The notes beneath the pieces are model-generated. The model did no database searches and was not told the origin of the DNA. It saw nothing but the letters and a program-made list of their open reading frames with translations. The position numbers and the translations under genes were made by a program. Below are positions 1 to 24,825 of a stretch of DNA of 64,000 nucleotides, in pieces. The DNA is from a virus. Its lineage: Duplodnaviria > Heunggongvirae > Uroviricota > Caudoviricetes. The DNA lies in IMG/VR virus record IMGVR_UViG_3300025009_000056. One strand, given 5' to 3'. How positions within the stretch are numbered: position 1 is the stretch's first letter; every line of letters begins with the position of its first letter.

Positions 1-1831
1 CTCTCGAAAAAGTATTGAATTCATCATCTGTAATAAAATACTCTTTCCCCTTTACCTTGATAATCGTTCCGGATGTACCCGATGCGTTTTCGAATTCCTT
101 TTGCAGTTTTCCGAGACCCATTCCGCGATAAGTCACCCTACCAGCCTCTAACTCCTCCTTGAAATCAGGAATATCCTTTATTGATGTAACGATTACTCCG
201 CCTTTTTCAAACTTCTTTTCACCAACAATGCCATCATAATCCTCCATTGTCAAAACACCTTTCGACTTAGAGATATTGATGGCATTCTCGGTTACAACAT
301 GTAAATCCATGTCTGTTTTAGCATCCTCTCTCGAATACTCGAGCATACGGATAAAAAGCGGAACATCTACTGTTACGGAATCAACTTTATCTAATCCCGA
401 ATTAGCTTTTTTTTTTAAGCAACCGCCATTTTCAAAATCATCATCAAAATATTTTTCATTTATTTTAATTCCATGTTTTTTGGCAATGTTTGGATAATGC
501 ATAAGGTCTCCCTTGTTTTCCGCAAACTCCATATATCCATCAGTAATATCAATCATTTCAGATGGTTCCATTTCCATCTCGCCACCAGACATTCCCCTGA
601 ATAAAACATCGTAAACTTTTTTATCAGATTCACCTACGTGGATATTTGAAATAACAAGACCAACGAGACTGTAGTCAGGTGCGTAAACTAAATCACCAAT
701 ATTAAATTCACCACCAACACTGCCACCATCCTCGTATGCATTTCTGAAATAAATATCCGGCTCAGATGTCACATTGTAAATATAATTTCCACATTTCACA
801 AGCAGTGCGTCTTTGCCATAATATTTTTGTTTCATTCCAATAATACTTCCGGTACGGCTAAAATTAGGAAATTCACTCAATCCATATTTATCGCAATCGG
901 AAGCAGGAATAGTTTTTACTGGATAGTTTTTACCACGCTCATAACTACCAACACTACCACCATCTTCAAACTTAATAGTTCCGGATAATTTACCCAAGAA
1001 TGTAACGACTTTCTCGATTTTAGAAGCCTCACCAGCGGTTGCCAGTTTGTCAATAGAAACCAGAATCTTTGTGATAATATTTTTCAGCTTATCAGTTGCG
1101 CTAATTACGGCCTTATTTTCAACCTCGCGGCCTTTATTATCCGTCACTTTCGGCACGTCTTTCTGAATGGTCACAAATACGTTGTCAACCTTTTCTTTCA
1201 CGATAGCTCTATCCTGACGGATTTCTTTACGCTGAATGGTTCGCTTGCCAACCTTAGCTGAGATAACATTGTAGTTCGCCTCTTCGAGAATGTTTTTCAC
1301 GTTACCCATTTCATCCGTAGGACGAACGGTTACGTTAATAGTCTTTTTATCAGCTGATTTTTTTACAACGATAACTTTCTTGGCCTCTGTTTTTTTAGGC
1401 TCCTCTTTTTTCGGTTCAACCTTTTTGACCTTTATTTCTACCTTTTTGGGTTCGGCTTTTTTCGGCTCCACCTTTTTTGGTTCAACTTTCTTGACCTTGA
1501 TTTGGACTTTTTTCGGCTCCACCTTTTTAGGCTCTTTTTTTTCCTTTTCGGCAACAGCTTTTTTACGCTCCTCAGCGGGTTTGCGTTCAACAACGGTTTT
1601 TCCAGCTACGGCAGCAGGGGATGTTTTCTCCACCAATGCATACATATGGTTAGCGATTTTCTCCTCAGCCTCCATCTGTACCTGAAGCTGCGCTAATCCA
1701 TCTTTTGATGTAATTGCGCTAAAATCTTTCGATACACGGGCTATCGCAGACTCAATATTCTTTTTTAATCCCTCATTCTTTACTTTATTCAGGTCTATCT
1801 TTTTTAAGATTGCCAGAGCTTTATTTTCCAT
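1..1831 (-). CDS. Large multidomain protein, N-terminal >610 aa (gene runs off left edge of window); Lys-rich KVEPKK tandem repeats and four [FY]E[DNK]GG motifs
   Basis: ATG = rc of 1829..1831; manual minus-strand translation MENKALAILKK... continues without stop to position 1 (frame check: rc of 2..61 reads IKVKGKEYFITDDEFNTFSR); absent from ORF track only because no stop inside window; contains IKFEDGG, YEDGG, FENGG, FEKGG. Confidence 0.55.
   Translation of the reverse strand, partial: MENKALAILKKIDLNKVKNEGLKKNIESAIARVSKDFSAITSKDGLAQLQVQMEAEEKIANHMYALVEKTSPAAVAGKTVVERKPAEERKKAVAEKEKKEPKKVEPKKVQIKVKKVEPKKVEPKKAEPKKVEIKVKKVEPKKEEPKKTEAKKVIVVKKSADKKTINVTVRPTDEMGNVKNILEEANYNVISAKVGKRTIQRKEIRQDRAIVKEKVDNVFVTIQKDVPKVTDNKGREVENKAVISATDKLKNIITKILVSIDKLATAGEASKIEKVVTFLGKLSGTIKFEDGGSVGSYERGKNYPVKTIPASDCDKYGLSEFPNFSRTGSIIGMKQKYYGKDALLVKCGNYIYNVTSEPDIYFRNAYEDGGSVGGEFNIGDLVYAPDYSLVGLVISNIHVGESDKKVYDVLFRGMSGGEMEMEPSEMIDITDGYMEFAENKGDLMHYPNIAKKHGIKINEKYFDDDFENGGCLKKKANSGLDKVDSVTVDVPLFIRMLEYSREDAKTDMDLHVVTENAINISKSKGVLTMEDYDGIVGEKKFEKGGVIVTSIKDIPDFKEELEAGRVTYRGMGLGKLQKEFENASGTSGTIIKVKGKEYFITDDEFNTFSR
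1380..1560 (-). repeat. Tandem ~30-bp coding repeats (KVEPKK/KVEIKV units) in partial giant gene
   Basis: Repeated '...ttttttcggctccacctttttnggntc' units on + strand; encodes KKVEPKKVEPKKAEPKKVEIKVKKVEPKKEEPKK. Confidence 0.6.
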
Positions 1832-1864
1832 TGTTATTTATTTTACGTTCTTATTTTTTATTTC

Positions 1865-1905
1865 AGACTACAAAGATAATGCATTGAAAATTGAAATGCA
1901 AGTGT
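1865..1905 (-). promoter_or_regulatory. Putative Bacteroidetes-type promoter (-7 box TATCTTTG) upstream of partial giant gene
   Basis: rc of 1871..1878 = TATCTTTG (TAnnTTTG), ~39 nt upstream of ATG 1831; CTTG ~20 nt further upstream. Confidence 0.4.
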
Positions 1906-1924
1906 TTTTTTAATTTATTGATTA

Positions 1925-4900
1925 TCAATCTCCCATTTCCATTTCTAACTCCAATAATTCAAGTTCCTGTTCCTGTCTTTCACGCTCCGAATTCATCAGT
2001 TCTAAAAGAGCCTTTTCCTCAGACGAAGCGCCTGTTTTGGTTTCTTTTTTAATTTCAGAAACATCCTTACGCTTACTTCTATCCGGAACATCTATCTGGT
2101 TGAACATTTCGAGCGCCAGTTCTAAATTAAAAAAATATCTTTTTAATTCCTCGCTACCTTGCTTGAGACCTCTATGTATAACATTTTTAACGCCAGCGAA
2201 CGAGAATAATTTACGCTCCAAATCCATGAGTATATCATCTGTTATAACAGAATCCTTGTGTTTGAAAAAGAAATCTGTAAAACCAGCGTTGTTAATCTGT
2301 TTTAACAGACCTCCATTATAATCCATCGTGCGTTTAAGCTCGGATAATTCCTCTAGAAATCTATCTGTGCTATTCCATATTGTCTCAATGAATTTCTGAT
2401 TGCCTTGCTTCATCGGATTAAGATGATATTCTGAAAACAAATCAGATAATTCCGTCAGCTTGTTTATAAATCTTTTACCAAGATAAGAAACATTGTTCTC
2501 CTTATCCGTTAAAACTATTTTATAATCACCATCTCTTTCAACAAATTCACCAATTGTAATAACATATTTTCCGATTGTTCCGTCACCAGCAATATAAATC
2601 AGATTGTTTTTATCACCGCCATACTCAATGTATTTTTTGGCAGCAATTAAAAAGCTGGGTATTTCCTTTTCGCTATATATGTAATTATTGCCAATAATCC
2701 AGACGGAAACATAATCCTCCTGTTTCACATGGTACTTGTCATAAACAATGTATTCAAGAGCCTCATACCCCTGTTGGTGTTCATCGAATCGGGTTATAGG
2801 AATAATATGATTGCTTTCCGTAGAAATCATAACATATCCTATTTTCGACTCCATATCTCTTACCTCAGACTCGGTTTTGCCCTCAATGTGTTGTGGTGAA
2901 AAATACTCTTTATAATTTTCAGGCCACTCATTTAAAATTTCACCACGCCAGCCTCTAATATCAGAAAAGTCACCAACGATTTTATACAGGTGTTTTATCT
3001 CATCCGGAATACTGAATTTCTGAGGATACTGCCTATCTATTTCACGTTGCATATTCTCACCTTGCTCAATAGCCATTTTCGTTATATTATCAACAGCGGT
3101 TTGCGCTTTCATTGCCGAAATATTCTTTTCCGCTTCCGCTGACTCTTTTTTCCCTTCATCAATAACATCTTTTCTCGCTTTTGATTGCAAATATTCGGTA
3201 TGCTTTCTTAATTGCTCCGGAGTCTCGATTCTTTTTTCTTTCACGTACTGTTTGCCAAGTTCCCCTATCTGACCCAAATAATGATACACCTGAATATACG
3301 CCATTTCTCTGCCGGAGTACATGGAAACGATTTTAACAATCCCGTCTTTAACATCACTCGTATTTGTCGGCGTTGGTAATTTCAGATAATCTATTACGGA
3401 TTCATCTTCTTTGAGCTGCAATGCGGAAACCACATCATCATAACGACCCGTCTCCGGATTTATCTTTTTCCAGATAAGAAATTTTATATTTTCATCTTGT
3501 TTGTATTTCTCAAACAATTCCTTTGCCTCGTTTTCTGAAAGTCCTAAAAATTCAGAGGCCGGAGTTCCATCATCATAGGTAATAAAAATACCATTTACGT
3601 TTTCATCCGCGCTCGTTTCGGTTTCCGTTATAGTTTCCGGTTCATCATCGGTTTCACGCACACCCTCTTTGTCAATAACCACAAGTCTCGCATTTGCTCC
3701 GGTTGTAGCATACAATGATTTATCTGTAAACGTACCCTCCGGTAATTTTTCAACATATGCACCCAAGCTATCAATCCACTCCCTGAATTCAACAGCTTTT
3801 CTATCACTGCCGGAGAAAATACCCTCGCCAACAATCGAAACAACTTTTCCGTTCGGCTTCAGTAATTCATATGCGTGTTTCAGGTGTTCAGCATCCATCC
3901 TGTTTGAGAACGGCGGGTTCATAATAATACGGTCGTATTTCTTTTCGTTATAATCCAAAAAGTCCGAGGCAACCAGATTGTACCCTTTTTCTTTTAATAT
4001 CTCAGCCAGCTCACCACTTATTTCGCAAACATCGGCCATAATTCCCGTTTTATCACGAATAGCATCGGCAATATTACCGTTTCCGGCACTCGGCTCAAGA
4101 AAACTCATTCCGGCTTTAACATCGGCCATATCGACCATTTTTTCAGCACCGGATTTCGGTGTCGGAAAGAAATCAAATCCCACTTTCTTACCAGCTAACT
4201 CGCGCTCCAACTGTTTTACCCTGCTGATTTTCTCTACACCACCGCGATATTGAACGAATTCACGCAATAAGGCTCTGAGCATTTCATCACTTTCCACTCC
4301 GAGAGAAACAAGCCGTTTGTGACTTTTCGCAAACTCTTTCAATCGTGATGTCTCCCAACTATCGGGAACTTTTTCAGCAAACTCCATGAAATCATCTAAC
4401 TCCTGCTTATTTTTTATCTTATAATATTCACCGCTACCTTTCAGGTATTTTTTGATTTTACCAGCAATATTTTTCAGTCCGGACTTATCCTCATTCTTAT
4501 TAACCGCATCCATCCATCTTTCTACATATACTTTAGGATAAAACAAATAATGCTCATCCACGTAATCAATAGCCTCTGGTGTTATCGGGTCGTATTTATG
4601 CTGTTCTTGCTCAGGGTAAGACTTATATTTACCCATTCTGAATTTATAAAAAGCATTGGTGACAATCTCGTTTAACTGTTCAATCTGTGCTTTCGTTCTT
4701 ACGTTATCAAGATATTTCGTTTCACCGGATTCTATCGCGTCAGCGATATTAATCATTGTTTTCGCAATAGACTTTTCAGTATTCAATTTCGATTCGGTAT
4801 TGCTTGCCATAGAAGCACGTCTGGCAGTGTTCGTCACCCTGTCTTTTGATAATTCATTATCAACGCGCTCTATTATACTTTCAGCATTCTGTCTAAGTTT

Positions 4901-7900
4901 ATCGGCTCTCTTTTCTTTTTTCTCCTCTTTTTTCTCTTGTACCTTTTCTACATTCGACACATCACCGTGTTTAACGGCAATAAATTTTTCAGCTTGCTCC
5001 CTTTCGGTAAACTGAAATCCGGCAATAGCACCCTCACGAGCATAACTCGAGTAATAACCACCAAGTTGCTTTGCGCGTTTATTCAATTCGGTGTACACAT
5101 CCTTATCAACTCGCTCCGATAACTTAACAACAAATAATGGCGTTCCCTTTTTTGTATGTTTCGTTTCGTAGATATTCATCTCCACGCCCTCAAGTTCGAC
5201 TTGCTTAACAACGGCTTTACTTTCTTCCTCGCGCTGCTGCTTTTCTTTTGTTTGTTGCGCAATCAGTTCGTCATACGCTGCCGACTGCTCCGGAGTCATA
5301 CCCTCTTTGCCTTTCACACGAATGAGTGTTTGGAAATCCTCAAGTGTTACAGGGTTTTCGATAGCTAACTTTGCTTTTTCAACATCAGCGATTCTTTTCG
5401 CGCGGGACTCTTTTATTTTTGCAGCATAATCATCCAGTGACTTTTGTGTTAATGATTCCACTTTATCTTTTACACCCTTAAACGGGTCGTCACCAAAATT
5501 CATAGTATATGAACCGAGTGCAAAGAAGTCTACGACATCAGTAACAATAGCCCTTATAGCCGCTTCTTTTTTCTCTGATTTATATCGGTACGCCATCATT
5601 CCACCAAGCAGCTTCAGTAACGCATCTTTTTTAAGCGGCTCTAATTCAGCTGTTAATTCGGACTGGCTTTCGAGTGCGCTGTAAAAAGCGGCTTTGAATT
5701 CATCTATTGTGATTTCACCATCGTATGTTCTTTTTACGATGTCCTTGTGTTTTGCTAATGTGTACTTTCCGGTCATTGGTATTTGATTTTTTTTATCCAA
5801 CTCTATCAATTCAATATTCAATACAGGATACAATCTTTGCATCTCGCTAAACTGAAAATGGTTTACCTTTTCAATGTTATCACCTACAACCAAATCAAGT
5901 CTTGATAATTTTTTTAAAGCTGGAGTTGAATTTACTCTTTTCAAAACTGCATCGTTTGGAATTATTATTTTAACAGTTTTTAGATTACTTTTTTCTAATT
6001 TATTATTTTCAGCCACCTTCTTTTCTTCTTTAATATCGTCTTTATTATCACTTTCCTCGACAAATCCATACGCAGTTGTTCTAATAACCTCTTTCACCAA
6101 ATCGCCAGATGAAATATCGTCATAATCCAACACAGTACCATCAATCGAAAGAACTCGTCCGTCAGCCCATTGGTCATAAACGTTGGTTATATTAAACCTT
6201 ACATTGCCAACGACTTTTAAGTTTTCAGAATCAATTTGCAACAACACGAATGTATCGCCAACTTTAACGTTTTCAATTTTTACAACTGGTATGTTTTCCC
6301 AGAACTCAATCTGCTTTTTTGTTCTGACAAGGTGTTGTTCCTCTTTACGAATCTCATTATTCAAACTTTCGGCTATCTGTTGTTTAAATTTATCATGCCA
6401 TATTCTCCTGTTTGTTTTTTTAAATCCGGCAAACTTAAATAAGCCGCGCTCCGTAACAAGGTAATCATCCACCTTATATCCGTAATCTTTTATCAATACC
6501 GGACTAATACCAAAACCCTGAATGATAAATTCACGAACATAGACATCCGTGTTATCAGGATTCATCATTTTCTCAATATACGACCGTTGTAATTCAACTT
6601 TTTTATTAATATCATCATCACTCATTGTTTCACTTTTTTCAGTAACGACCGTTTCAATGTTTTCGTTCAAAGCTGGAGCGGTCTGCTTATCATCAACTAT
6701 GTTTACTACATCATCTTTTACAACTGGCTCAACTTCCGACTCAACAACTACAGCGGCTTCAACAACCTCTGTTTTATCATCATCTTTAAAATCAATATAT
6801 TCATCCTGACGCTCTTTTGAAAACGCAACAAAATCACCTATCGACATACTGTTTTTAACAGACTCAAATAAAGCGTCAAACAAAACAGATATTTTTTCCA
6901 ACTCCGCACCCTGCGGGTAAGGCATTTTGTCGCCCCATTTAGCCCAATTATCCTTGTAAGAAACGAGATAATTATTAACACGTCCGGCCTTTTCGAGTTT
7001 TAATTGAATATAAGCCTCAAAAGCGCGAGCGGCAAGCTCTTGACTTCTCACCCAATATTCACTTTTAGCAACATGGTTTGAATCGTAATAATATTTTGAT
7101 GAATTATAATGCATATCCACATCAATATATTCAAGTCCAAATTTATATGCAATGTATCCAAAAAAGTTTACAGTGCTCTTACCATCAGCCATACTTCCAT
7201 TCCTATATCCACTATACTCCTTTTGTGCCACCTCTATTGCTTTTTCAGCTGTGTCAGCGTAAACTCCCTGATACTTAATGTCCGACTGAGCGTAATATCT
7301 CACCTTTTTAAAGAATCCACCATCACCCTTATTTATATAATCCATCAATGCTTTTGCGGAATTAGATACCCCCGCACTCTCATTGTATGACGTAAACACG
7401 CTGGTTATAAAACTATACGTTCCCCCATGTTGGTCTTTTTCAGCGACCATATTATCAAAATAATGGAACCATTCGTGAGCCACACTACCATCACCTCTGT
7501 TTTTCGAAAGGTTTATCGCTTTTACTGATGGGAAATATGTAGCCATGTGTCCACCAACGCCCATTGTGGCAAAGTTTATATCAAGTCCACCAAGACTATT
7601 AACCTTAGCCATATCAATGTTCAGTATTTCAGATAAATCAGTTAAAGCGCCAAGAAAATGCCTTACATGCGCTCTACTGAATTCATCATTAAGAGCTTTT
7701 CCAAAAATAACATTTTTGAAACCAAAATATTTTCGAATATTTTCTACAGAAACCTCCGGAGATTTAATACCGCCAGTTCTTTTTATGTACGCAAGCGGTA
7801 TTTTCGTGTTTATCTTTGGTGCATTCGCATCTTTATCGCCGCCTTTTCTTTCCGCTTTCTGTTCATCAGTCCACGACCAGTCATCCATGCGAATTTTATA

Positions 7901-11074: not shown

Positions 11075-11128
11075 TTAAAAACTGTTTAATTTTTACGCCT
11101 GCAAATATACGATAATTTACGTCTGAAA

Positions 11129-14100
11129 TCAATTGTTTATTTTATCAAGGTATTCCTTTATCTTGTCTATATTTTCTTTTGATTTACTTATTTTATACCT
11201 GTAAACATAACCAGCATCGGAATATTCGTTAGTGAACGACACGCCTGTTTGTTTTAAAAGGTTTGTGATTTGCTCTTTATCATTAGAACCACTGGGGTTA
11301 AAAATAACAGCCACACCTATTCCGTATGTAGTTGGATAAACATTTATTGAGCTTCCGGAATGCCCACTTTTTACAAGAATATCCTTAAAGATGACAGAGA
11401 AATCTTTATATATTTTCTCCTTGTTTATTTTATCCGAAATCCAACTCGCGGTGATAAGACTTCTTGTTTTTGGCAGCCTTATACTCTTTAACGACACACC
11501 ATCTATCCATTGTCCATCAATAGACCATCCGAAAGTAATCTCGCTCGCTTTCGGCGATTCGAGTTCCACCTCGTTAGTATATTCATCGTAAACATTTACG
11601 CTAACACCAAAATAATCCTCTATTTCCTTCGCACTTTCGAATGGTTTTTCTGATTCAATTTTGCCACCTTTTTCTTTCTTGCTTACCAAATCAGGATAAT
11701 CAGCCAGAACTTCTACCGGAACAGGCTTACCATCAGCAATTGCTTGTTCAATCATTTTTTTATGTGAGCCGTATTTGTATTCGTCAAGCGTTGCCATATG
11801 CTTTTTAACATAAGCCATACCGTCAGCCTGAATAGCTCTCTTTCTCTCAGCGCTCCATCTTTCTGCTGCTGTCATTTCCCACGCCTCTTTTTTATCAATC
11901 GAATACGGAGCAAGATATTTATCCCGTGTCAACTCTCTATCAACACTATCTCCATGACCCCAGTTGGTTTCTTTATCTTTCACATACTTATCCACAGCAG
12001 CCGCTATCTGCTCCCTTGTAAAACCACCATTGTAATCTTTGGCATACAATCCTTGTTTGCCATAAAATTCAGACATGTAATCAATAAAGTCGTTTATCTC
12101 GCTTTGGGTAGGCTTTGCTTTACCCGAATTAGAAATCATTTCCTCACCATCACTCATTTCAACCTCCAGTAGTTCAAGCTCCGATTCCTGTCTTTCGCTT
12201 TCAGATGATAAAAGTTGCAGTAACGCCATTTCCTCAGCCTTTTTCTCTGCCAACTCTTTTTGCTTTGCTGACATTTTCTTACCAGCCTTTTCCTGTTGGG
12301 CAATAATACGGGCAGCATTCTTTTCGGCTAACAAACGCTCTTTTTCATCGAGTTCCGCTTTTTCATCAGCAATTCTTTTTTCCTCAGCCAATCTGTCTGC
12401 TTCCTCTTTATCTTTTCTTGCTTTTTCAGCTTTTAACTCCTCAGCTTTTTGACGTACTAAATCCTCTTTCAATTTTTTCTCAGCGGCTCGTTTGTTTTTC
12501 TCAGCCTCACGCTTATTGATAGCCTCTATCTGCTCACGTGACTCATCTTTTGCTCGTGTGATTTCTTTTTGCAAACGTTCTTTTTCAACATCAGCATCCT
12601 TCTGTAATTTTTTCTTCGTCTTACCTATCTCGGTGTTAACGAGTCCATCCGGAGAAATATCAATAGACTCAATGCTTTCACGATTAACCACCTTAACGGT
12701 CTCATCATTACAGTCGAAACAAGGATAATCTAAAATCTCTACAGGTATATCGTATCCCTCAATGTGAAGAGGCATAACCAATACAAATGGATTTTTTAAA
12801 CTACGGGCATCAGCAGCACTACCAACTGGCATGAATAATAATCCACGCTTGTTTGTTGAACCGGATATTTCAATCTTATCATATCCAAGTCGCTTCATGA
12901 ATGTAGTGGCTTTTATTAAATTCTCACTTGATACTTTAACAACCAATTCATCTATTTTAATCACAACACCAGCAACTCCGGCTTTCTGAACGATTCCAGA
13001 TTTATACATTGCGTTTGCAAATATCTCAAGACTGTTTACATTAATAATGTTTCTATTATTATTGTTCTGAGGAAGAACACCAATATACTCCGGATACCTT
13101 GTTTTATCAGAATCATTTCCGCTTTTAATTTCGCCACCATCGGGAATATCATATGTCTCAATGCAATCTTTGGTCAAACAGAAATTACCTTTTTTAGAGA
13201 CCTTACCGTTTATGAAAGCTAAAACATTTGCATTTGTTGCAGAGACACCATGCTCATCAAATCTTATAGCTTTCAGAATATCCCTCGCCACACTATCTTT
13301 CGTGGCCGCGAAATCGTCCATAATATTAATCAGGTTCTTATCTGATGGGTCGAGCTTATAGGAAAGCGGTCTAACATCTGATTTTTTCTTAAATTTTTCA
13401 GGGATAAATTCAAAAAGATTCAGGTTGCTTTCGGCAAATATTTCATAGAACAATGTTTCATCAGTCTTATCATATGCATACGTTATCCAATTATACATAT
13501 AATCGTCTTTCACCATTGTCTTTGAAAGTCCGGCTTTCTCCAATAGGTCGTAATATACTGACAGTTTTTCAGGTTGTTTTGATTTTATCACAACCTCAAT
13601 AATAAATTCAGCCAGTGTACCAACAACAGTGTTACTTGTATCTCCGTGCTGTACATTGAAGTATTTCTTATCTTTTGTCTCGTTATAATTGGAAAGAGCT
13701 TTTTCAAAACGCTCTAAAATTCCAGCCTCATATACGGGGTCTAAATATGGCTTTTCCTCTCCCGTATCGGAAACAGGCTGTTTAAACTCCGCTATTTCTT
13801 TTAGACATGCAATTTTAAATTCCTTAAGAGATTCTTCAGCTCCGGAAACATTACCATCCTTATACTGTTTTATTGCTTTTATCAATATTTTATTTGTAGG
13901 ATGGAAGTTCATATCTCTGAGACTTTCCGTAAGTTTTTCGAGCTTTCCTACTCCCCAAGACAAACTGGCTTTCGCGCCAGTGTTGAGCATGTCCATTGTT
14001 GGAAAATCTTCCTCATACTCCATTCCAAATTCATATCGGCCAACAGGATTTGAATCCTCCTTATCTTTGTTTTTATTCATTTGCTCATCTTTTATTTCAT

Positions 14101-17100
14101 TATTTTCGACACCAATATTTTGCTCCTCACTGATAACTGGAACAACTACCTCCTCTGTCAAAACAGGCTCAAATCTATTCGTGACATTTGCATTTGGATA
14201 TTTTTCAAGAATCCACTTTTTCAACTCACTCTCGATTGCACTAATTCCCGATTTTGCAACAGGAACTTTTTCTCCAACGATTGCGGAAATAACCTCTTGT
14301 CTTTTCTGTCTATTATGGTCTCCGGATAAATTATATATCAAATCCCCTATAGCCCGATAGTCTTTTCCGGCTTTCACGACCTGCTCGTCAACCATTTTCA
14401 CAAACGGATGTGGATACTCACCTTTCACAACATCACCATTCTCAAATTTATCTTTATATAGAATGGCTACATTTTTCAGAAAACCAAATCCATATTTCGA
14501 CTTAATGTAACTAATATCATCATCTATTACGTTGTCGTCAACCTGCGCAACATAAGAACCTCTGAAAATAATAAAATATTCACCGGATTTACTATGCTTA
14601 ACAATGCTGAAATACTCCTGAATTTCCAAATCCTCGAAATCTGATGAATTCCACCAATCACCCGTTATTTTATGAATCTGTGTTGAAAGCGGATTTCTAT
14701 CGGAGATAACAATTACTGTTGCGCTTTTCTGCACATCACCACCATTTTCAAATAATTCACCATTACTATAGTCTCTGCTTAACACTCCTATATTTCTGTC
14801 ATGCTCCGCCTCAAAAACAACATCTTCTACATATTGCGAACCCCATGAGGCTCCCAACTCCCAGTTACCCTCATCATCCATAAAATAATGACGGCCAAAA
14901 TAATAAACAGGGTTTTGTTTTTTCTCGAAAACAACTTTATTATTGTTTTCAAAATATATCGTTCTTTCTTTTTCCACATCCTCCCTCGTGAATGGAGTAT
15001 TAATATCTCTCACAGCACCACCGTCTTCGAACATGGTTATTCCGGCCATCTGTACCTGATTCTGGTCAAATAAACTCATACTGTTATCGTTTTCAATTGT
15101 ATCCTGAATAATATTACCCTCATTATTAAGCGTTTTGTCTATATTTTCACCAACAACATCACCTTTGTCAAATTTCCAGTATTCAGTCTTCAAGCTAATT
15201 CCAACTTTATTTTTGTAAATTGGATTTTTATCCACACGGAATTTATCGACATAATCAGAGCTATTAAAATCACTGATAAACAAATCAGCTTTTTCCGCTG
15301 ATTTCATATCAAGCACCCTTCTTGCTACGGAATTCTCTTGCATTTCTTTAAAAAGATTTCCCCAAAATGTATTAATCTTGCTTTTCCTATCATCCAACCT
15401 TCCACCATCCTCAAACGGCAAATCCAACGTGTTATCCCTAAACATTTGTTTGAGCTTATTCTTTTTCGCGTTCCAATTACTTATATCATATTCATCCCAC
15501 TCGCTCACTGGCTTGCTATAAAGGTAATTCGTCTCATCACCAACCGCTCCAAGAAGTCTATAAACACTATCCTGTGTTGGCACAACTCCACCATCTTCCA
15601 GAATTTCGCCGTTTGGTTTTATTGCGCCTTTCATTTTCTCATCAATTAAATTATTTTCCTTACTCGATTCAATCAAACAATCACAATCAATAGCTTTTCC
15701 GCCGCCATCCTGATTTATTTTCGACAACTCCTCGCAATGCATCTGTGCTGCTTTTCTGGTAATAACAATCTCAGCCTGCTCGATTTCTATCGGCTGTCCG
15801 GTTTCTTTCACCACCATTGGGATGCCGTCATTTGTATGCAGCTCTCCATTATACGCAGCGCCACCATCGGCTATACTGTTATCGTCCTGAAGTGTAATAT
15901 TGTTTACTGAATCGCCCTTTTCCATTTTGTTTGATTTATTGTTTACTAAATTCATTTCTGTGTCATTATTTTTTTCACCATCATTAATATCTACAACCGA
16001 GTCCTCTTTAATATCAAATATTACACTACCATAAGAACCGGAATCCGGATTTGCATCACCCTCTTTTACCGGAATATTTCTAACATCAATCCCCTCATAT
16101 CCCAACGCTTTCAGAATAATAGTTGCCGATGTATCCACGATATTTGTTCCGTCAGACGGCTGCTCTAATCTATTTTCCGCTTTCACTGAATTTTCAAGCA
16201 GCGATTTTATTATTTCATCTTTTTTCGCTGTCAACTCATTCTTAAATTCGGAAATAAAGTCACTGAATAAAGAGTATTCTTTTAATTTCGAAATCATTGA
16301 ATCCCAATCGGAATAAACCCTATCTGCGCTGACAATATTAGGAGTCTGACTTAATGCGTTTTTAATCCAGAAATAATCAGAACTGTTTGACGGCCTTAGC
16401 AAATTATACTGAGAGAAATCAACTGCTTTTACACTTTTCTCTCCGGTTAATCTATTTCCGCGTTGCATTGCTGGCTCAATGGATGAATAGAAATAATATC
16501 CGGTGAAAGGAACTGATGTGCCGCGCAGTGTACTACCAATACCCTCAGCCTTTTTATATAAATCACCACCGTGATAACCCAAGTTGTCAACAGAACCACC
16601 GTCCTCAAATTTTATATATTTGACAACGGATTTAAACTTATCGTATTCCCTTTGTTTAATCGGCTCGCTTATTCCAAAATTTTCTTTTAGGTATTCAGAC
16701 ATTTCACCAATGCCCATGTTTTTAATATCGTCAATAACCGTTTTGTATTCAGAATCACTCAACTCCCTAAAAACGATTACCGGAATAGTCTTTGCGCCTA
16801 AACTCTTTGCGGCCAGCGCCCGATGTCTTCCCTCTTGTGATTTACCGCCAATGGTTAAATATGGTATTTCAAATAAATCACCAGCTTTCATTAATTCAGC
16901 AATTTCTATTACATTATCATCGGAAACATACTGCATATTTTCACCAGTCGACAAGAAAAATCCTTTTGAAACATCATACATGTATTCATCCGGAGTCATT
17001 TCAACTATTTTTGCAGTCTTTGACTTTTCCGTAATAGCATAAAGTGGCATATCAAATTCGACATGCTTTCTTTTCGCATCATCGTAATCCCAGTTTATTT

Positions 17101-20100
17101 CAGTTGAAACATTGCCACCGTTCTCAAATCTAATATCCGGATTTTCGGCATTGAAAGTGGTGTTCGTTCCGTCTGCGAGTTTTATTTGGGTTGAATCAAA
17201 ACAACTTATAATAGCACCTCTATCCCAATGGTTGAATTTTATTCCATCGTAATTATTCCCTCTTAATATTTCAGAAACATCATCATTAAAATAATCGTTG
17301 TTTATTGATTTAACCTCACTTATCACATCACTTGGACTTTCACCCTCAACTATGAATAGTTTTCTTATATTTAAAAACACAGGTAAAATCGTTTTCCCAT
17401 ATTCTTTAAATTCATCTTTACTTATGGAAAAATAGAACCCTCTTCCCAACCACCCTATCAATTGCTTTTGCTTGTCAAACTCATATATTTTTGCTTTAGC
17501 CCTATTGTAAACCACCAATGGCTCTCCATTGGAATCTACAACTTTACTCGCGTTTTCTGGGTCGTTAATCCAGTCACCAAACCACGAAAGAAACTCTGGT
17601 GTGCGGACTAATTCATATTGCTCCGGAGTCAGGTTACTCGTTTTCCCGTTAGGTGCAACCATGCCACCATCCTCCATTTCAGCAACAGGGCAACCAACAA
17701 CAGCTTTTATACCATCGGTAAATTCAATAGTTCTAAAACTTTCCTCATTAAATTCACACGGTTCCACCTGACGAAATCTGTATGTGTTTTCTTTTTCGTC
17801 AACATCGGTTTTATATCCGTGTTTTTTCAACCACGCCTTAGCTTTCTTCAGTGTAAAATTGTCTTTTGAAAACAAAAGAGTTTGCACCTTTGTGCCAACC
17901 GGACATTCTACAAAACCACCCTGTTCAAATTTATCTTTGAGTGTGTTTTTAATTTCAGCTTCAGACGGAGCGGCAATAACTTTTCCGTCCGGTAATCTCA
18001 AATTCTGAAACCTGCTCGGATATTGATAAAAAGGGTTTCCATATTTCGAGAAATTAATAATTATCTGATTTGATAATGTAAACGAAATATCGGAGCCGTA
18101 GTTAAAATAAATGTCTTGGTCTTTTCTTTTTCCGGAGCTTTCAACATTCAATAAATCATCATTTGCACCGAGGAGTAAATCGGATAATTTGTCATACATC
18201 TTATTCTTGTAAGATGAAATATCCATCGTTGATTTTTCATCAGATATTTTCTCGATTAACTCATCAGTGTTTTCAAGCTGATATATATTGTGCGCACTAT
18301 TTTCATCCTTAACGAATGTAAACGGCCTGAGAGCATATCTGATTTCTCTATTTCTCTCGAAATTGTTTTTATCATTAACATTCAATGGGTAAAGAATGTC
18401 AACATTATTCGTACCCTTTCCAACAATCTCTTTCTGAAATTCAGAAATAATATTGTTATACATTCTTTTGTACGATTCTTTTATTTCTAAACGGAAAGCC
18501 TCAGCGACCTCATCTATTACGCGCTTTATTTTCGGGTTTATCTTTCCGGTTACTTCCTGAATTCGCTTTTCCTCTGTTACGCTTTTAGGCTCGCGTTTTA
18601 CAATGCGGCCTTTTATCAGCTTTAATTTCTCGGCTACCTTACGCCTTAATTCCGTATTTCTATCGGGAGTGTTATAATAGTCGTATATTTCCCTCTCGTA
18701 CTTATTCATTGCCTGAATATCCGACTTTTTTAATTTACCGCCCCAATGCAATTCATTTAGTATTGTGCTATTTCCATTGACGGGAGTTCCCTCTTTAAAT
18801 AGGAAGTCATGCAGGTTTTTATATTCCAGATTGTCACGGTGAATAATATCCCAAGCAAAGTCTGAAAAACCTTTTTTCACAACGAGACTGACTTTTTCGC
18901 TGAAAGCACGTTTCATTCTATCGTAATCAGCCTTAATAAGCGTGTCTTTTTCTACGTCAAAGTCTAGAAATTCATTTATTGCATTAACATACTCTTTTGG
19001 TGCTCGTTGTTGCATTGCTCCAATAACAACAGCCCTTTCGTCGGTGGAAATAACGCCACCGTCCTCAAATCTAATATCCGGATTTTCGGCATCAAAAGTT
19101 ACATTTGTTCCATCCGCGAGTTTTATTTGTTCCGGATAAAACGCCACGTATTGATTGTTTATCAATTCTTTTATCCCTCTTTCTCCGAATAGGTTAATCC
19201 AATAGTTTTTATCATCATCATTTAATGGCTCTATAAAATAACCATCATGGTTGTCTTTTATCAACTCATCCCTTAAGATTTCAGGACTCGTACTCGTCAT
19301 CGTCCATTGGCGAGCATTTACTGTTTTCGGGGTTTTTATAGACAAGAAACAATCAATTACCTTTGAACCTTTTTTCAACTCACTCTTTTCCGCCAAACTC
19401 CACTTATACCGCGTAAAATCCTCGGCTAAACTTTTATTATTTGTAAAATAAAAACCCATTTTACCCCAATCCGCACCAGTCTGCTTGGTTGCGTGTTTTA
19501 AAGAGAAAATAGTAAAATCTTTTACAGTTCCATGATAAACCACCAACGGCTCTCCATTGGAATCTACAACTTTACTCGCGTTTTGTGGGTCATTAATCCA
19601 ATCACCGAACCATGCTTTAAACTCGGGTGTACGGACTAATTCATATTGCTCCGGAGTCAGGTTGCTCGGTTTTCCATTGGGAGCCAGCAACACATCATCA
19701 TTCTTTTTACGCGAAATTTTAAAATCAACCAACGTGGGCTGTTTTCTTACAGGTCTCTTTTCTTTCGGCAAGTCATAATATTTCAATCCGAACTCCATCA
19801 GATTGGCATAAATAATTTCTTTTTGTTTCTGAAAATCCGACTCATTCTCATGTTCCGCTATCAACCCTTTTTCAATCGCATCGTAAATGACATTGGTTTT
19901 CATTTGCGGAATACCGTATTTTTTCGCAACCTCATCAATACCCATCTTGTCGGAAATGGAATATATCTTTTGTCTGAATTTAGCCAGATATTTTTCCGGA
20001 CTTTTTTTCACCACGATGCTTTTTCCAGAATCGCGTACAATATCTTTTTTACCCATAATGGATGCAACAACGCCACCGATAACACTGAGCGGAATAACAC

Positions 20101-20179
20101 TCTTTGATGAATCGACATTGATTGTATAGTTTTTCTTTCTCCCCTTTGGCTTACTATACGTGAATTTCAAACTACCCAT
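11129..20179 (-). CDS. Giant (~3016 aa) multidomain polyvalent-type effector protein: two tandem-related ART modules (second with His->Asn), ParB-like nuclease domain, coiled coils, many FEDGG motifs
   Basis: Uninterrupted 9.1-kb ORF; ORF track start 20257 is TTG (rc of caa) lying upstream of a predicted promoter; first ATG (MGSLKF...) at 20177..20179; motifs VVYHGTVKD, VVYNRAKAKIY, QEGRHRALAAKSLG. Confidence 0.75.
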   Translation of the reverse strand: MGSLKFTYSKPKGRKKNYTINVDSSKSVIPLSVIGGVVASIMGKKDIVRDSGKSIVVKKSPEKYLAKFRQKIYSISDKMGIDEVAKKYGIPQMKTNVIYDAIEKGLIAEHENESDFQKQKEIIYANLMEFGLKYYDLPKEKRPVRKQPTLVDFKISRKKNDDVLLAPNGKPSNLTPEQYELVRTPEFKAWFGDWINDPQNASKVVDSNGEPLVVYHGTVKDFTIFSLKHATKQTGADWGKMGFYFTNNKSLAEDFTRYKWSLAEKSELKKGSKVIDCFLSIKTPKTVNARQWTMTSTSPEILRDELIKDNHDGYFIEPLNDDDKNYWINLFGERGIKELINNQYVAFYPEQIKLADGTNVTFDAENPDIRFEDGGVISTDERAVVIGAMQQRAPKEYVNAINEFLDFDVEKDTLIKADYDRMKRAFSEKVSLVVKKGFSDFAWDIIHRDNLEYKNLHDFLFKEGTPVNGNSTILNELHWGGKLKKSDIQAMNKYEREIYDYYNTPDRNTELRRKVAEKLKLIKGRIVKREPKSVTEEKRIQEVTGKINPKIKRVIDEVAEAFRLEIKESYKRMYNNIISEFQKEIVGKGTNNVDILYPLNVNDKNNFERNREIRYALRPFTFVKDENSAHNIYQLENTDELIEKISDEKSTMDISSYKNKMYDKLSDLLLGANDDLLNVESSGKRKDQDIYFNYGSDISFTLSNQIIINFSKYGNPFYQYPSRFQNLRLPDGKVIAAPSEAEIKNTLKDKFEQGGFVECPVGTKVQTLLFSKDNFTLKKAKAWLKKHGYKTDVDEKENTYRFRQVEPCEFNEESFRTIEFTDGIKAVVGCPVAEMEDGGMVAPNGKTSNLTPEQYELVRTPEFLSWFGDWINDPENASKVVDSNGEPLVVYNRAKAKIYEFDKQKQLIGWLGRGFYFSISKDEFKEYGKTILPVFLNIRKLFIVEGESPSDVISEVKSINNDYFNDDVSEILRGNNYDGIKFNHWDRGAIISCFDSTQIKLADGTNTTFNAENPDIRFENGGNVSTEINWDYDDAKRKHVEFDMPLYAITEKSKTAKIVEMTPDEYMYDVSKGFFLSTGENMQYVSDDNVIEIAELMKAGDLFEIPYLTIGGKSQEGRHRALAAKSLGAKTIPVIVFRELSDSEYKTVIDDIKNMGIGEMSEYLKENFGISEPIKQREYDKFKSVVKYIKFEDGGSVDNLGYHGGDLYKKAEGIGSTLRGTSVPFTGYYFYSSIEPAMQRGNRLTGEKSVKAVDFSQYNLLRPSNSSDYFWIKNALSQTPNIVSADRVYSDWDSMISKLKEYSLFSDFISEFKNELTAKKDEIIKSLLENSVKAENRLEQPSDGTNIVDTSATIILKALGYEGIDVRNIPVKEGDANPDSGSYGSVIFDIKEDSVVDINDGEKNNDTEMNLVNNKSNKMEKGDSVNNITLQDDNSIADGGAAYNGELHTNDGIPMVVKETGQPIEIEQAEIVITRKAAQMHCEELSKINQDGGGKAIDCDCLIESSKENNLIDEKMKGAIKPNGEILEDGGVVPTQDSVYRLLGAVGDETNYLYSKPVSEWDEYDISNWNAKKNKLKQMFRDNTLDLPFEDGGRLDDRKSKINTFWGNLFKEMQENSVARRVLDMKSAEKADLFISDFNSSDYVDKFRVDKNPIYKNKVGISLKTEYWKFDKGDVVGENIDKTLNNEGNIIQDTIENDNSMSLFDQNQVQMAGITMFEDGGAVRDINTPFTREDVEKERTIYFENNNKVVFEKKQNPVYYFGRHYFMDDEGNWELGASWGSQYVEDVVFEAEHDRNIGVLSRDYSNGELFENGGDVQKSATVIVISDRNPLSTQIHKITGDWWNSSDFEDLEIQEYFSIVKHSKSGEYFIIFRGSYVAQVDDNVIDDDISYIKSKYGFGFLKNVAILYKDKFENGDVVKGEYPHPFVKMVDEQVVKAGKDYRAIGDLIYNLSGDHNRQKRQEVISAIVGEKVPVAKSGISAIESELKKWILEKYPNANVTNRFEPVLTEEVVVPVISEEQNIGVENNEIKDEQMNKNKDKEDSNPVGRYEFGMEYEEDFPTMDMLNTGAKASLSWGVGKLEKLTESLRDMNFHPTNKILIKAIKQYKDGNVSGAEESLKEFKIACLKEIAEFKQPVSDTGEEKPYLDPVYEAGILERFEKALSNYNETKDKKYFNVQHGDTSNTVVGTLAEFIIEVVIKSKQPEKLSVYYDLLEKAGLSKTMVKDDYMYNWITYAYDKTDETLFYEIFAESNLNLFEFIPEKFKKKSDVRPLSYKLDPSDKNLINIMDDFAATKDSVARDILKAIRFDEHGVSATNANVLAFINGKVSKKGNFCLTKDCIETYDIPDGGEIKSGNDSDKTRYPEYIGVLPQNNNNRNIINVNSLEIFANAMYKSGIVQKAGVAGVVIKIDELVVKVSSENLIKATTFMKRLGYDKIEISGSTNKRGLLFMPVGSAADARSLKNPFVLVMPLHIEGYDIPVEILDYPCFDCNDETVKVVNRESIESIDISPDGLVNTEIGKTKKKLQKDADVEKERLQKEITRAKDESREQIEAINKREAEKNKRAAEKKLKEDLVRQKAEELKAEKARKDKEEADRLAEEKRIADEKAELDEKERLLAEKNAARIIAQQEKAGKKMSAKQKELAEKKAEEMALLQLLSSESERQESELELLEVEMSDGEEMISNSGKAKPTQSEINDFIDYMSEFYGKQGLYAKDYNGGFTREQIAAAVDKYVKDKETNWGHGDSVDRELTRDKYLAPYSIDKKEAWEMTAAERWSAERKRAIQADGMAYVKKHMATLDEYKYGSHKKMIEQAIADGKPVPVEVLADYPDLVSKKEKGGKIESEKPFESAKEIEDYFGVSVNVYDEYTNEVELESPKASEITFGWSIDGQWIDGVSLKSIRLPKTRSLITASWISDKINKEKIYKDFSVIFKDILVKSGHSGSSINVYPTTYGIGVAVIFNPSGSNDKEQITNLLKQTGVSFTNEYSDAGYVYRYKISKSKENIDKIKEYLDKINN
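16700..16950 (-). other. ParB/sulfiredoxin-like nuclease domain within giant protein 2
   Basis: rc of 16801..16850 encodes GGKSQEGRHRALAAKSL (ParB N-domain GxxRxxA-type motif). Confidence 0.45.
17050..17600 (-). other. ART module B (paralogous duplicate, His replaced by Asn: VVYNRAKAKIY...GRGFYFSIS) ending in NPDIRFENGG
   Basis: rc of 17475..17520 encodes EPLVVYNRAKAKIYEF; >90% nt identity to module A over 17521..17650 vs 19541..19690. Confidence 0.5.
19000..19650 (-). other. ART module A (catalytic His intact: VVYHGT...GFYFTNN) ending in NPDIRFEDGG
   Basis: rc of ~19530..19550 encodes PLVVYHG; module begins ...TPEFKAWFGDW. Confidence 0.5.
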
Positions 20180-20204
20180 TATTTTCTTTTTTATTATAAG
20201 GAAT

Positions 20205-20245
20205 GTTGCAAAGATACGAAATAAAACAGCCCATGTCAAATTACG
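20205..20245 (-). promoter_or_regulatory. Putative Bacteroidetes-type promoter (-33 TTTG / -7 TATCTTTG) for giant protein 2
   Basis: rc of 20209..20216 = TATCTTTG; rc of 20237..20240 = TTTG, 20-nt spacing; ~29 nt upstream of ATG 20179. Confidence 0.5.
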
Positions 20246-20302
20246 TTTATTAATCAAACAGTAATTTTACACAGGCCGCTACTACACATTCGCTAAACGC
20301 AC

Positions 20303-22697: not shown

Positions 22698-23720
22698 TCA
22701 AAAGTCGTTTTCACCCTGCGGCTTAATCAGTGATAACGTTTTAGATATTCTGTCATTATTAGCCTCAGAATTCACGTTACCTTTATCATTATCCAAATAT
22801 TCGAATTCGGCATCCTCTTCGATTCCAGAGAATGATGCTTGGTCATACTTAATAGCCTTCGCTATATTAATTGCTGACTGCTGGTCAATAGAAAGCATCC
22901 CGTATTTACCCAATAGTAATTTCAATACGGTTTTCTTGCCCATATCTTTAAAATCAGTCACCCAGTTTCCCTCTCCCAGCCTGTAAGATTTTGAGTATTT
23001 TTTAGCATGTCGCTCAATCTCCATTGCCGACATATACATGTTTTTTTCAAATCCGGCTGTGAGCTTGAAGTATGCATAATACCCAACAATTTCACCTTTA
23101 CCCTCCGGCTCATACCGCATTTTCCACTGACTCTTATCTGTCAAAGAAAGCTCTTCCGTGAATGGATTATACGACACGAATTCATCTTTATAAACCTCCG
23201 TAACAATCAATTTGGCATATTGTCCGGTTCTCTCAGCTAGCTGCACGTAAGCTTTCCACATCAACTGAAGTTGCGCGGTGTGACTATGCGTCCCTGTCGG
23301 ATTTTTCTTTTTATACGGAACAATGGCAGCGTATCCCAAGTTTGGGTCAATGGATAAATTCATACTGGCCGCAATAACGGCAGCTGAAACTATACTCAGT
23401 GGCTCACAGTTTCTCAAACCGTTAGATTTACTTACAACGACTGAAAGGTTACTCATGAAAGAGTTTGCGTACTTATCCAACACCTCTGCAAAACGCCGCC
23501 GAACTTTATCATCACGCAATAAATCAGTAAATGTAAGTGGTTTTCGCTGAAGACCAACCTGCATTTTATCCTCACCACCACACTGAGCATCTGGAATTAC
23601 AGCAGCGTTTTCAACATCTACGTTTGTATCAACCGGATTTGATTCTGGCTGATTTTCGACAGATGCTTCTGGTTGCTGCTGTAACTCCGAATTTTCAGTA
23701 TTTTTTTTCTTTAATGCCAT
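22698..23720 (-). CDS. recT: RecT-family single-strand annealing protein (recombinase)
   Basis: FTDLLRDDKVRRRFAEVL..., SIVSAAVIAASMNLSIDPNLGYAAIVPY, AQLQLMWKAYVQLAERTGQYAKLIVTEVY - RecT/Red-beta core signatures. Confidence 0.8.
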   Translation of the reverse strand: MALKKKNTENSELQQQPEASVENQPESNPVDTNVDVENAAVIPDAQCGGEDKMQVGLQRKPLTFTDLLRDDKVRRRFAEVLDKYANSFMSNLSVVVSKSNGLRNCEPLSIVSAAVIAASMNLSIDPNLGYAAIVPYKKKNPTGTHSHTAQLQLMWKAYVQLAERTGQYAKLIVTEVYKDEFVSYNPFTEELSLTDKSQWKMRYEPEGKGEIVGYYAYFKLTAGFEKNMYMSAMEIERHAKKYSKSYRLGEGNWVTDFKDMGKKTVLKLLLGKYGMLSIDQQSAINIAKAIKYDQASFSGIEEDAEFEYLDNDKGNVNSEANNDRISKTLSLIKPQGENDF

Positions 23721-23735
23721 TTTTGTTTTTTGTAG

Positions 23736-24221: not shown

Positions 24222-24255
24222 TGATTTACTGTTTTAAATCCGTTACTCAAAATGA

Positions 24256-24564: not shown

Positions 24565-24568
24565 GATT

Positions 24569-24823: not shown

Positions 24824-24825
24824 AT

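Follow-up and report, generated by a model that had tools for sequence, protein, structure and literature searches.

A short Gly-Gly motif at the module junctions of giant polyvalent proteins in a tailed phage

A 64-kb stretch of viral DNA (64,000 nucleotides (nt) of the IMG/VR record IMGVR_UViG_3300025009_000056, class Caudoviricetes), referred to here as the window, contains three consecutive giant genes, denoted B, A and C in the order of transcription. The modules of their products are joined by a short peptide, typically Phe-Glu-Asp-Gly-Gly (FEDGG), which is almost certainly a real junction marker and is restricted to one phage clade. It is the most distinctive feature of the three proteins and was overlooked in an earlier note on this DNA. 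The three giant open reading frames (ORFs) that the note had described were confirmed, all on the minus strand. A and B are new members of the known class of polyvalent proteins, and C is placed there by its context. Overall, the reading that is slightly favoured here is that A, B and C are separately promoted polyvalent effector proteins of a large phage, which would be made as polyproteins and cut at their junctions.

A, B and C together contain 16 copies of the string [FYML]-E-[DNQK]-G-G (Table 1), compared with an expectation of 0.12 and a maximum of 2 in 2000 shuffles, and a six-frame translation of the 64 kb contains none elsewhere. The string divides A into pieces of 178, 256, 330 and 2285 amino acids (aa), B into pieces of 375, 380, 84, 183, 173, 336, 62, 128, 93 and 1202 aa, and the visible part of C into pieces of 292, 78, 100, 75 and at least 65 aa. 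In A, three N-terminal modules ending in motifs are followed by a motif-free region of 2285 aa, composed of a zincin unit and a methyltransferase block similar to that of phages F116 and H66. The N-terminal 1814 aa of B consist of nine modules and nine motifs, and its C-terminal 1202 aa are motif-free. In C, a Lys-rich N-terminal region precedes small modules split by four motifs. It can be observed that the recognised domains occupy one piece each and that each ends at a motif. Synonymous codon differences (GAG/GAA, GAT/GAC, GGT/GGC/GGA) are seen among the 16 sites, indicating that selection acts on the peptide, of which the third position also varies in amino acid. In two AlphaFold (AF2) models, Asp-Gly-Gly and the next 5-8 residues were predicted with low confidence, and Phe-Glu belonged to a confident block just past the last helix.

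A generalised form of the motif, [FYMLWI]-x-x-G-G-x-[IVLMFT], was scanned in 122 related giant proteins, in which 1147 copies were found compared with 112 +/- 12 in shuffles. Nearly half of the GG dipeptides in these proteins belong to the generalised motif, the median spacing of which is 159 aa, and 11 of the 122 proteins stop 3-6 residues past a motif. Between 54 and 57% of the ends of BLAST segments other than those of ADP-ribosyltransferase (ART) domains lie no more than 10 aa from a motif, compared with 11% of random positions. Moreover, modules of A and C reappear in other proteins or positions of the relatives with the motif at their borders; the region A 174-426, for example, constitutes the C-terminal module of a 2295-aa protein encoded on a 205-kb contig (L003), where it begins right after NPDIRFEEGG. 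The motif can also be doubled, as in EKGGYMAKGG in relatives and FEDGGGVDGG in A. In the other ORFs of the window, the generalised motif occurs at chance level (0.47 per 1000 aa).

Giant ORFs in two IMG/VR contigs of 84 and 65 kb, L008 (5883-18806) and L009 (3822-17432), bear 11-26 motifs in a variant, (K)[MYF]A[KDE]GG, that is frequently duplicated. These motifs separate ~25 mutually unrelated modules of 60-130 aa. Pfam recognised nothing in the 2093-aa and 1634-aa giants of these two contigs. Other accounts of the motif were considered and rejected. The giants are not internal-repeat proteins, as the 2093-aa protein of L008 has 26 motifs and no self-BLAST hits. A DNA-level repeat or recombination signal fails as the main explanation in view of the synonymous codon variation described above. 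The motif is not part of the modules themselves, for it flanks the ParB-type module in only 1 of 40 large proteins outside the clade; nor is it a general trait of giants that bear ART domains, being at chance level in crAss-like cr85_1, BF1-TP2 gp68 and H66 gp60. Neither the motif strings nor the processing of phage polyproteins yielded anything relevant in the literature that was searched.

The assignment of A and B to the polyvalent proteins, as proposed in the earlier note, is supported by two Pfam families that were established on such proteins, ART-PolyVal and LPD1, and by zincin, methyltransferase and ParB modules, all of which rank among the commonest domain types of this class. Polyvalent proteins combine from 2 to 15 or more effector-type domains; A contains an ART, the zincin/LPD1 unit and the methyltransferase, and B contains two ARTs, the ParB/Srx module and at least eight further modules. 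Domains specific to polyvalent families scored above the Pfam thresholds in both A and B, and none did so in C. A search with B retrieved 2460 relatives, the best 120 of which are metagenome proteins of 1.7-5 thousand aa that combine ART-PolyVal with changing partners (NUDIX, GNAT, eukaryotic-type topoisomerase I, zeta toxin, PAPS reductase, ParB, N6-methyltransferase and beta-clamp). Tandem giants were found both on the 205-kb contig (2295, 2221 and 442 aa) and on a 142-kb contig (1794, 1117, 424 and 1302 aa). The domain mix is typical of the class, and not unusual as had been thought, because multi-copy ARTs (up to 12), zincins, methyltransferases and ParB domains have already been described, together with predictions of capsid packaging and of processing by metallopeptidases (Iyer 2017, PMC5512222). 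Multi-ART proteins are known, as are fusions with zincins or methyltransferases, and relatives in which two or three giant ART genes stand in tandem are common in metagenomes. Most of the present modules are unknown to Pfam, the orphan modules measuring 60-380 aa. Only 3 homologues of B 1192-1920 were found among 5.8 billion proteins, and sequence searches of the PDB with full-length A and B gave no match.

The putative peptidase that the earlier note had recognised in A from the string HEWFH is borne out as a zincin, a gluzincin of the lethal-factor/PPEP/MtfA-like kind, by the fold of the predicted structure, by the conserved HExxH and by a downstream Glu. Pfam LPD1 scored 69 bits in A, with a cut-off of 27. 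H436, E437 and H440 of the zincin unit are invariant in the family, and the candidate ligands E582 and E589 (in YW..E..AR..E) show no variation among 16 sequences and reach a conservation of at least 90% in a set of 38. Structure prediction confirms the fold as that of an anthrax-lethal-factor-like zincin, and the nearest solved folds are site-specific endopeptidases. Homologues of the unit in related phages and in Bacteroidota genomes are encoded by a stand-alone gene of ~700-800 aa. The unit itself contains no junction motif. In at least 10 LPD1-zincin homologues that are extended at the N-terminus, KFENGGEIEK lies ~458 aa ahead of HExxH, a site that represents the N-boundary of the zincin unit and corresponds exactly to the position of FEDGG in A. 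One stand-alone homologue starts with MKKRNKKLATGGEV, in which the junction motif follows a 7-residue leader. In L008 and L009, the closest viral relatives, a stand-alone motif-free zincin gene is located between two giant genes with 11-17 and 23-26 motifs. The order in the window parallels this arrangement, with the zincin fused into A: motif-rich B is followed by A, with three motif-bounded modules and then the zincin, and subsequently by motif-rich C. In L008, the giant genes are followed by genes for two peptidoglycan hydrolases, a glucosaminidase and a lytic transglycosylase.

Zincin/LPD1 homologues of 670-780 aa (~29% identity) were also observed in genomes of Marinilabiliales, Flavobacteriales and Bacteroidales (contigs L089-L132, e.g. 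L099 5682-11938), frequently as several copies and on short contigs that resemble repeats. Where the locus is longer, the start of the zincin gene falls within the final codons of a conserved ~1300-aa ORF. In L099, the locus that was scanned, this ORF encodes a Strawberry-notch-like SF2 helicase of 1315 aa (AAA_34 and Helicase_C_4). The chromosomal locus looks like a multi-copy mobile element, and its surroundings contain no junction motifs.

Here, the reading that is slightly favoured can be set out step by step. Each protein would be a chain of independently folding cassettes, swapped between proteins across related phages, and essentially every cassette junction in the clade bears an aromatic residue or Met, then x-x-G-G-x and an aliphatic residue, in the present case FEDGG. 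The proteins would be made late and loaded into the capsid, and a site-specific protease, of which the zincin embedded in A would be the best candidate, would cut at the junctions either in the capsid or after injection. In this manner, two or three giant precursors could give rise to ~20 effectors, and the 2285-aa part of A and the C-terminal 1202 aa of B would be left as two large proteins devoid of the motif. Cleavage at the motif is a serious possibility, judged to fall a little short of even. Processing is favoured because the motif is short, strictly placed, clade-specific and independent of the flanking folds, as expected for the site of a trans-acting factor. That the zincin is the cleaving protease is more doubtful; it is considered a candidate because its fold relatives are sequence-specific endopeptidases, the unit is motif-free, and the zincin of L008 and L009 lies between motif-rich giants. 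An equally plausible enzyme would be a prohead protease whose gene lies beyond the window; T4 gp21 and phiKZ gp175 trim packaged proteins at short sites. Neither the three giants nor the further window ORFs that were examined gave a significant match to a cysteine protease of the adenain or PLpro type, the only cysteine-peptidase hint (Peptidase_C98, E = 0.048) being non-significant, and the N-terminal module of A contains no Cys. The wider proposal, that this clade of Bacteroidota phages delivers its injected arsenal as true polyproteins, with dozens of unrelated small modules freed by a dedicated lethal-factor-like zincin in or between the giants, is put forward tentatively and would be true in the minority of outcomes that we envisage.

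A, B and C are likely to be packaged in virions, as suggested by their homologues. H66 gp60 (3787 aa), which is 40% identical to A 1772-2469, is annotated as a virion part verified by mass spectrometry, and phi24B gp47 (2811 aa, with LPD1) was detected in virions by proteomics and proposed to be an ejection protein. In H66, a lysis cassette follows the giant gene.

Several points weigh against processing of packaged precursors. The homologues from which late expression and packaging are deduced are distant and partial, and the host-type promoters ahead of A, B and C say nothing on timing. No head, portal, prohead-protease or packaging genes were found within the 64-kb window. The loss of the catalytic His from the second ART of B implies that the modules need not all be active enzymes. 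In Marinilabiliales and other Bacteroidota, the chromosomal zincin always lies directly after the 1315-aa helicase and has no motif-rich protein nearby, which argues that processing of such junctions was not its ancestral role. Distant LPD1-zincin proteins (e.g. those of 2810 aa encoded at the most distant zincin loci) also have a chance-level motif density. Furthermore, the present evidence fits a conserved hinge as well as a cut site.

Such a hinge, within proteins that stay intact, is the main rival to cleavage. The giants would function without being cut, like beads on a string, and might pass through the tail in unfolded form as other ejection proteins do, with the aromatic residue capping the preceding domain, GG supplying flexibility and the aliphatic residue beginning the next domain. 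The AF2 models agree with this proposal in that confidence is low at Asp-Gly-Gly and the following residues and high at Phe-Glu, and GG is a classic flexible element. In addition, phi24B gp47 has been discussed as a single ejection protein of very large size, and N4 vRNAP enters the particle at full length (Iyer 2017, PMC5512222). However, a consensus of 5-7 residues retained at hundreds of junctions regardless of the flanking fold is rare for hinges, and a hinge accounts poorly for motifs kept at protein termini and after a 7-residue leader, for the tandem copies EKGGYMAKGG and FEDGGGVDGG, and for the joining of the same modules without the motif in other clades. We regard a role solely as a hinge as rather unlikely. 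A further proposal is that the motif acts chiefly as a recombination junction for in-frame module swapping, like the VENN and PxxxxDPxGL motifs of polymorphic toxins, with a secondary role, or none, at the protein level. Between different phages, A-, B- and C-like proteins have indeed exchanged modules, and the breakpoints coincide with the motif; the domain content of the 2460 relatives is extremely diverse. Yet the codon variation at the 16 sites leaves no identical stretch beyond a few bases, 15 nt is too short for homologous recombination, and selection is visibly exerted on the peptide, so recombination cannot be the primary constraint. It is very improbable as the chief role, and, being compatible with a hinge as well as with cleavage, it does not exclude the cleavage model.

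It was also considered whether A, B and C are not virion cargo at all, and instead function as intracellular takeover or anti-defence factories or as structural proteins of the tail or surface. The giants follow a long same-strand run of RecT, exonuclease, SbcC-like, NAMPT and Prs genes, each is preceded by a host-type promoter, and the window has no head genes, all of which would suit this explanation. Against it, the only homologues examined experimentally, H66 gp60 and phi24B gp47, are virion proteins, and the proteins from which the polyvalent Pfam families were built have links to packaging or transfer genes (PMC5512222). Moreover, the giants of L008 and H66 have genes for lysis or peptidoglycan hydrolases as neighbours, where the late region ends, and no tail-fibre-like or receptor-binding domains were detected. 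A non-cargo role is accordingly considered unlikely, and packaged precursors cut at their junctions remain the reading slightly favoured.

Regarding the ARTs, Pfam ART-PolyVal matched A at 479-751 (8e-15) and B twice (1e-32), with 56 and 114 bits, respectively, against a cut-off of 31.2, and a family hidden Markov model (HMM) was built from 150 ART segments of relatives. The one ART in A and the two in B that had been noted earlier were all confirmed by both, with a triad that proved to be H-Y-D and not H-Y-E as stated then. In the ART-PolyVal family, the triad comprises H in strand 1, Y in strand 2 and D in strand 5 (Iyer 2017, PMC5512222). The corresponding residues are contained in YHGT...GFYF...GHDA in A and in YHGT...GFYF...NHDG in the first copy of B. 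In the second copy, VVYNRA replaces the consensus VVYHGT, so that the catalytic His has become Asn; Y and D are retained and the rest of the domain is well conserved. To judge from these residues, this copy is probably inactive or altered as an ART, and it may represent a pseudo-enzyme or an NAD-independent binding module. The ARTs cannot be called Alt-like, as the active site of T4 Alt, a member of the Alt/VIP2 clade, is R-S-E (PMC5512222). A third candidate ART in B (aa 1196-1420, LGYHGG...GYYFYSS) was ruled out by the family HMM.

A gamma-class (TaqI-like) amino-methyltransferase of the NPPF type in A is supported by the order of its motifs in FLEPSAGNGN ... IIMNPPFS, motif I being N-terminal to motif IV, by PHROG "DNA methyltransferase" families that match A down to 9e-201, and by the best PDB match, MJ0882 (E = 0.0017), the alignment of which spans both motifs. 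Pfam MTS scored 21.4 bits, just below its cut-off of 23 bits. The 800-aa block of A that contains the methyltransferase is ~40% identical to the giant protein of F116 and H66. From the PHROG names and the H66 annotation, we infer that its target would be DNA. DarB is a dyad of a methyltransferase and an SF2 helicase with LPD36 (PMC5512222). No match to LPD36, SNF2 or a helicase was obtained in A even at E up to 5; with neither helicase nor LPD36 alongside, the methyltransferase is not of the DarB-type dyad to which it had been likened, and instead belongs to the type found in F116 and H66.

The ParB-like nuclease domain reported for B stands as regards its fold. The predicted structure confirms aa 1023-1195 as a ParB/sulfiredoxin fold with a conserved (D/E)G.HR motif, whereas Pfam ParB_N scored 12.7 bits, below its cut-off of 26.3, and matched none of the 47 family members of the module. 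Similarly, the long coiled coils described for both proteins were found in B, as a charged helical stretch of ~165 aa, but in A only a short one at the C-terminus was detected by a crude composition filter. The extreme C-terminus of A (aa 3000-3049, 1925-2074) and aa 2638-2679 of B (12143-12268) share a stretch of 50% identity that ends in SE(R/S)ERQE(Q/S)ELELLE(L/V)EM. The element ELELLE(L/V)EM was not found among 160 relatives, and the shared stretch may be a phage-specific association or targeting signal, or the product of a recent exchange. Near the N-terminus of B, a hydrophobic stretch VIPLSVIGGVVASIMG (aa 28-43, 20051-20098) is preceded by a basic segment and may insert into a membrane or resemble a signal sequence, a feature of some ejection proteins. 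At B aa 2293-2421 (12917-13303), PHROG 6615 "DNA polymerase" matched weakly (2e-5), and some relatives contain Pfam domains of the DNA polymerase III beta-clamp (PF00712/PF02767); a clamp-like module may be present in B.

All long ORFs of the window lie on the minus strand, and the GC content is ~37% throughout. A Bacteroidetes-type TAnnTTTG element is located 35-47 nt 5' of the ATGs of A, B and C, with the context CGTAnnTTTGCA in the case of A and B. Each gene having its own promoter, the three therefore represent separate transcription units. The element of B, TAtcTTTG at 20209-20216, falls within the TTG-started extension of the ORF, and the ATG at 20179 is consequently the likely start. 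TAnnTTTG was counted 52 times on the coding strand of the window and 32 times on the opposite strand; a scan for sigma-70 promoters and terminators gave no more than chance level. A recurring element TTCGTAnnTTTG was observed on the minus strand 30-47 nt 5' of several ATGs (window 61033, 51053, 48459, 20216, 11109 and others). The host of the phage is most likely a member of Bacteroidota because of these promoters, in agreement with a homologue in a Bacteroidetes metagenome-assembled genome and with the taxonomy of the chromosomal relatives of the zincin unit.

The gene beginning at 1831, C, exists as the earlier note had stated, but its likeness in style to A and B consists only of the junction motif and one module shared with relatives, with no recognisable domain in Pfam, PHROGs or NCBIfam. 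Near its N-terminus, a 66-nt tandem repeat (2.3 copies, window 1391-1543, C aa ~97-147) encodes a lysine-rich KKVEPKK-type array. Protein C retrieved a single short fragment from IMG/VR, and an exact 46-mer from the left end of the window had no match in viral or metagenome contigs. No near-identical DNA was found among 50,697 phage records. The one public contig carrying B (17.5 kb) falls within the window.

Table 1. Positions of the junction motifs, predicted domains, genes and promoter elements in the window
Feature	Position	Strand	Remarks
Gene B	11129..20179	-	3016 aa, ATG 20179; alternative 11129..20257 from TTG
Gene A	1925..11074	-	3049 aa
Gene C	1..1831	-	5' part only, ATG 1831, at least 610 aa, continues past the left end of the window
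FEDGG (B aa 371)	19055..19069	-	
FEQGG (B aa 751)	17915..17929	-	
MEDGG (B aa 835)	17663..17677	-	
FENGG (B aa 1018)	17114..17128	-	
FEDGG (B aa 1191)	16595..16609	-	
LEDGG (B aa 1527)	15587..15601	-	
FEDGG (B aa 1589)	15401..15415	-	
FEDGG (B aa 1717)	15017..15031	-	
FENGG (B aa 1810)	14738..14752	-	
FEDGG (A aa 174)	10541..10555	-	
FEDGG (A aa 430)	9773..9787	-	
FEDGG then GVDGG (A aa 760)	8783..8797	-	directly ahead of the zincin unit
FEDGG (C aa 288)	956..970	-	
YEDGG (C aa 366)	722..736	-	
FENGG (C aa 466)	422..436	-	
FEKGG (C aa 541)	197..211	-	
ART-PolyVal of A (aa 467-761)	8792..9676	-	Pfam and family HMM; insert of ~115 aa
ART-PolyVal copy 1 of B (aa 185-372)	19064..19627	-	Pfam and family HMM; H, Y and D all kept
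ART-PolyVal copy 2 of B (aa 861-1019)	17123..17599	-	Pfam and family HMM; catalytic His to Asn (VVYNRA)
Zincin unit of A (aa 765-1530)	6485..8782	-	Pfam LPD1 over aa 1336-1408; fold by predicted structure
HEWFH zinc-binding motif of the zincin unit (A aa 1200-1204)	7463..7477	-	
Block of A homologous to the giant virion protein of Pseudomonas phages F116/H66 (aa 1766-2575)	3350..5779	-	
Methyltransferase core of A (~aa 2295-2480)	3635..4192	-	EPSAGNG (motif I) then NPPF (motif IV)
ParB/sulfiredoxin-fold module of B (aa 1023-1195)	16595..17113	-	fold by predicted structure; invariant QEGRHR motif
Charged helical (coiled-coil or single-helix) stretch of B (aa 2517-2684)	12128..12631	-	ends ELELLEVEM
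Bacteroidetes-type -7 element TATCTTTG	20209..20216	-	37 nt 5' of the B ATG; context CGTATCTTTGCA
Bacteroidetes-type -7 element TATATTTG	11102..11109	-	35 nt 5' of the A ATG; context CGTATATTTGCA
Bacteroidetes-type -7 element TATCTTTG	1871..1878	-	47 nt 5' of the C ATG

The phage context of the window is evident from RecT, exonuclease and nicotinamide phosphoribosyltransferase (NAMPT) PHROGs and from the location of the genes on one strand. Its other genes encode RecT, a lambda-Exo-like exonuclease, an SbcC-like ATPase, an SPFH protein, a radical-SAM/DUF5131 protein, and NAMPT with Prs. A recombination cluster just upstream of the giants (22698-30087, minus strand) comprises a RecT-like annealase (22698-23720), an SbcC/Rad50-like AAA_23 protein (25769-27511) and an exonuclease VIII-like nuclease (29086-30087). 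Upstream of this cluster are the radical-SAM/DUF5131 protein (36660-37463) and the SPFH/Band 7 protein (51843-52823); DUF5131 is also encoded just upstream of the giants on the related 205-kb contig. Two adjacent minus-strand genes, 40511-41992 and 42010-42864, encode NAMPT (PHROG 448, 4e-209) and ribose-phosphate pyrophosphokinase (Prs, 1e-83), respectively. They form an NAD+ salvage pair in a phage with three or more NAD+-consuming ART domains, and could equally counter host defences that deplete NAD.

The prediction made in 2017 that metallopeptidases process polyvalent proteins named no cut sites and was therefore hard to test; the FEDGG consensus makes it concrete, showing where the termini, the mutable residues and the relevant zincin would be. 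If the junctions are cut, the motif parses thousands of giant metagenomic proteins into modules of 60-380 aa, mostly unknown to Pfam, and the resulting catalogue would be one of candidate host-takeover or anti-defence proteins of Bacteroidota phages. Should the polyprotein reading be true, the motif would provide polyvalent proteins with their first defined cleavage code, and a double-stranded DNA phage would employ a polyprotein strategy at the scale of RNA viruses, many of the modules being sized like known anti-defence proteins. If the motif is only a hinge, the proteins are a clear example of cassette shuffling and otherwise ordinary.

In comparison with known systems, A and B resemble the published polyvalent proteins (PMC5512222) as giant polypeptides with an ART of the Tox-ART-HYD2 type, often several, and with zincin, adenine methyltransferase, ParB-like and LPD domains, for which co-delivery with DNA and processing by an embedded metallopeptidase were predicted. 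They differ in that the zincin is LPD1-associated and lethal-factor-like, not MPTase-PolyVal, in that most modules are unknown to Pfam, and in that a defined motif stands at essentially every junction, whereas the 2017 text contains neither "linker" nor "glycine" nor any junction or cleavage consensus. New with respect to that description are the junction consensus, its restriction to one clade and the conserved placement of the zincin among motif-rich genes. H66 gp60, a "PLxRFG domain-containing" protein, has ~40% identity over A 1772-2469 including the methyltransferase, and phi24B gp47 shares LPD1; both are encoded by a single giant gene, unlike the three found here, in phages of Proteobacteria, and in gp60 the motif is at chance level (3 in 3787 aa). 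P1 DarB and T4 Alt are capsid-packaged, injected enzymes that protect the phage DNA or re-program the host, a route proposed here from homologues. In T4, the prohead protease trims both Alt and the internal proteins. A lacks the helicase and LPD36 of DarB, and the R-S-E of Alt contrasts with the H-Y-D of the present ARTs. Among viral polyproteins with GG sites, adenovirus protease cuts at (M/I/L)XGG-X, African swine fever virus pp220 and pp62 are cut by pS273R, and coronavirus PLpro recognises LXGG. Like the proposed giant precursors, these are long precursors of structural or core cargo with short GG sites, cut partly in the particle in the known systems. Their proteases are of clan CE or papain-like cysteine type, whereas none of these was found here, where cleavage is a proposal, and the hydrophobic residue of the present motif would be at P5 and not P4. 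Finally, polymorphic toxins also bound exchangeable toxin cassettes with a short conserved peptide, VENN in CdiA and DPxGL (PxxxxDPxGL) in Rhs, the latter being an autoproteolysis site as well. In these proteins, however, one junction precedes a single C-terminal toxin, compared with up to 26 junctions per protein in the present clade, and both the sequence and the delivery route are different.

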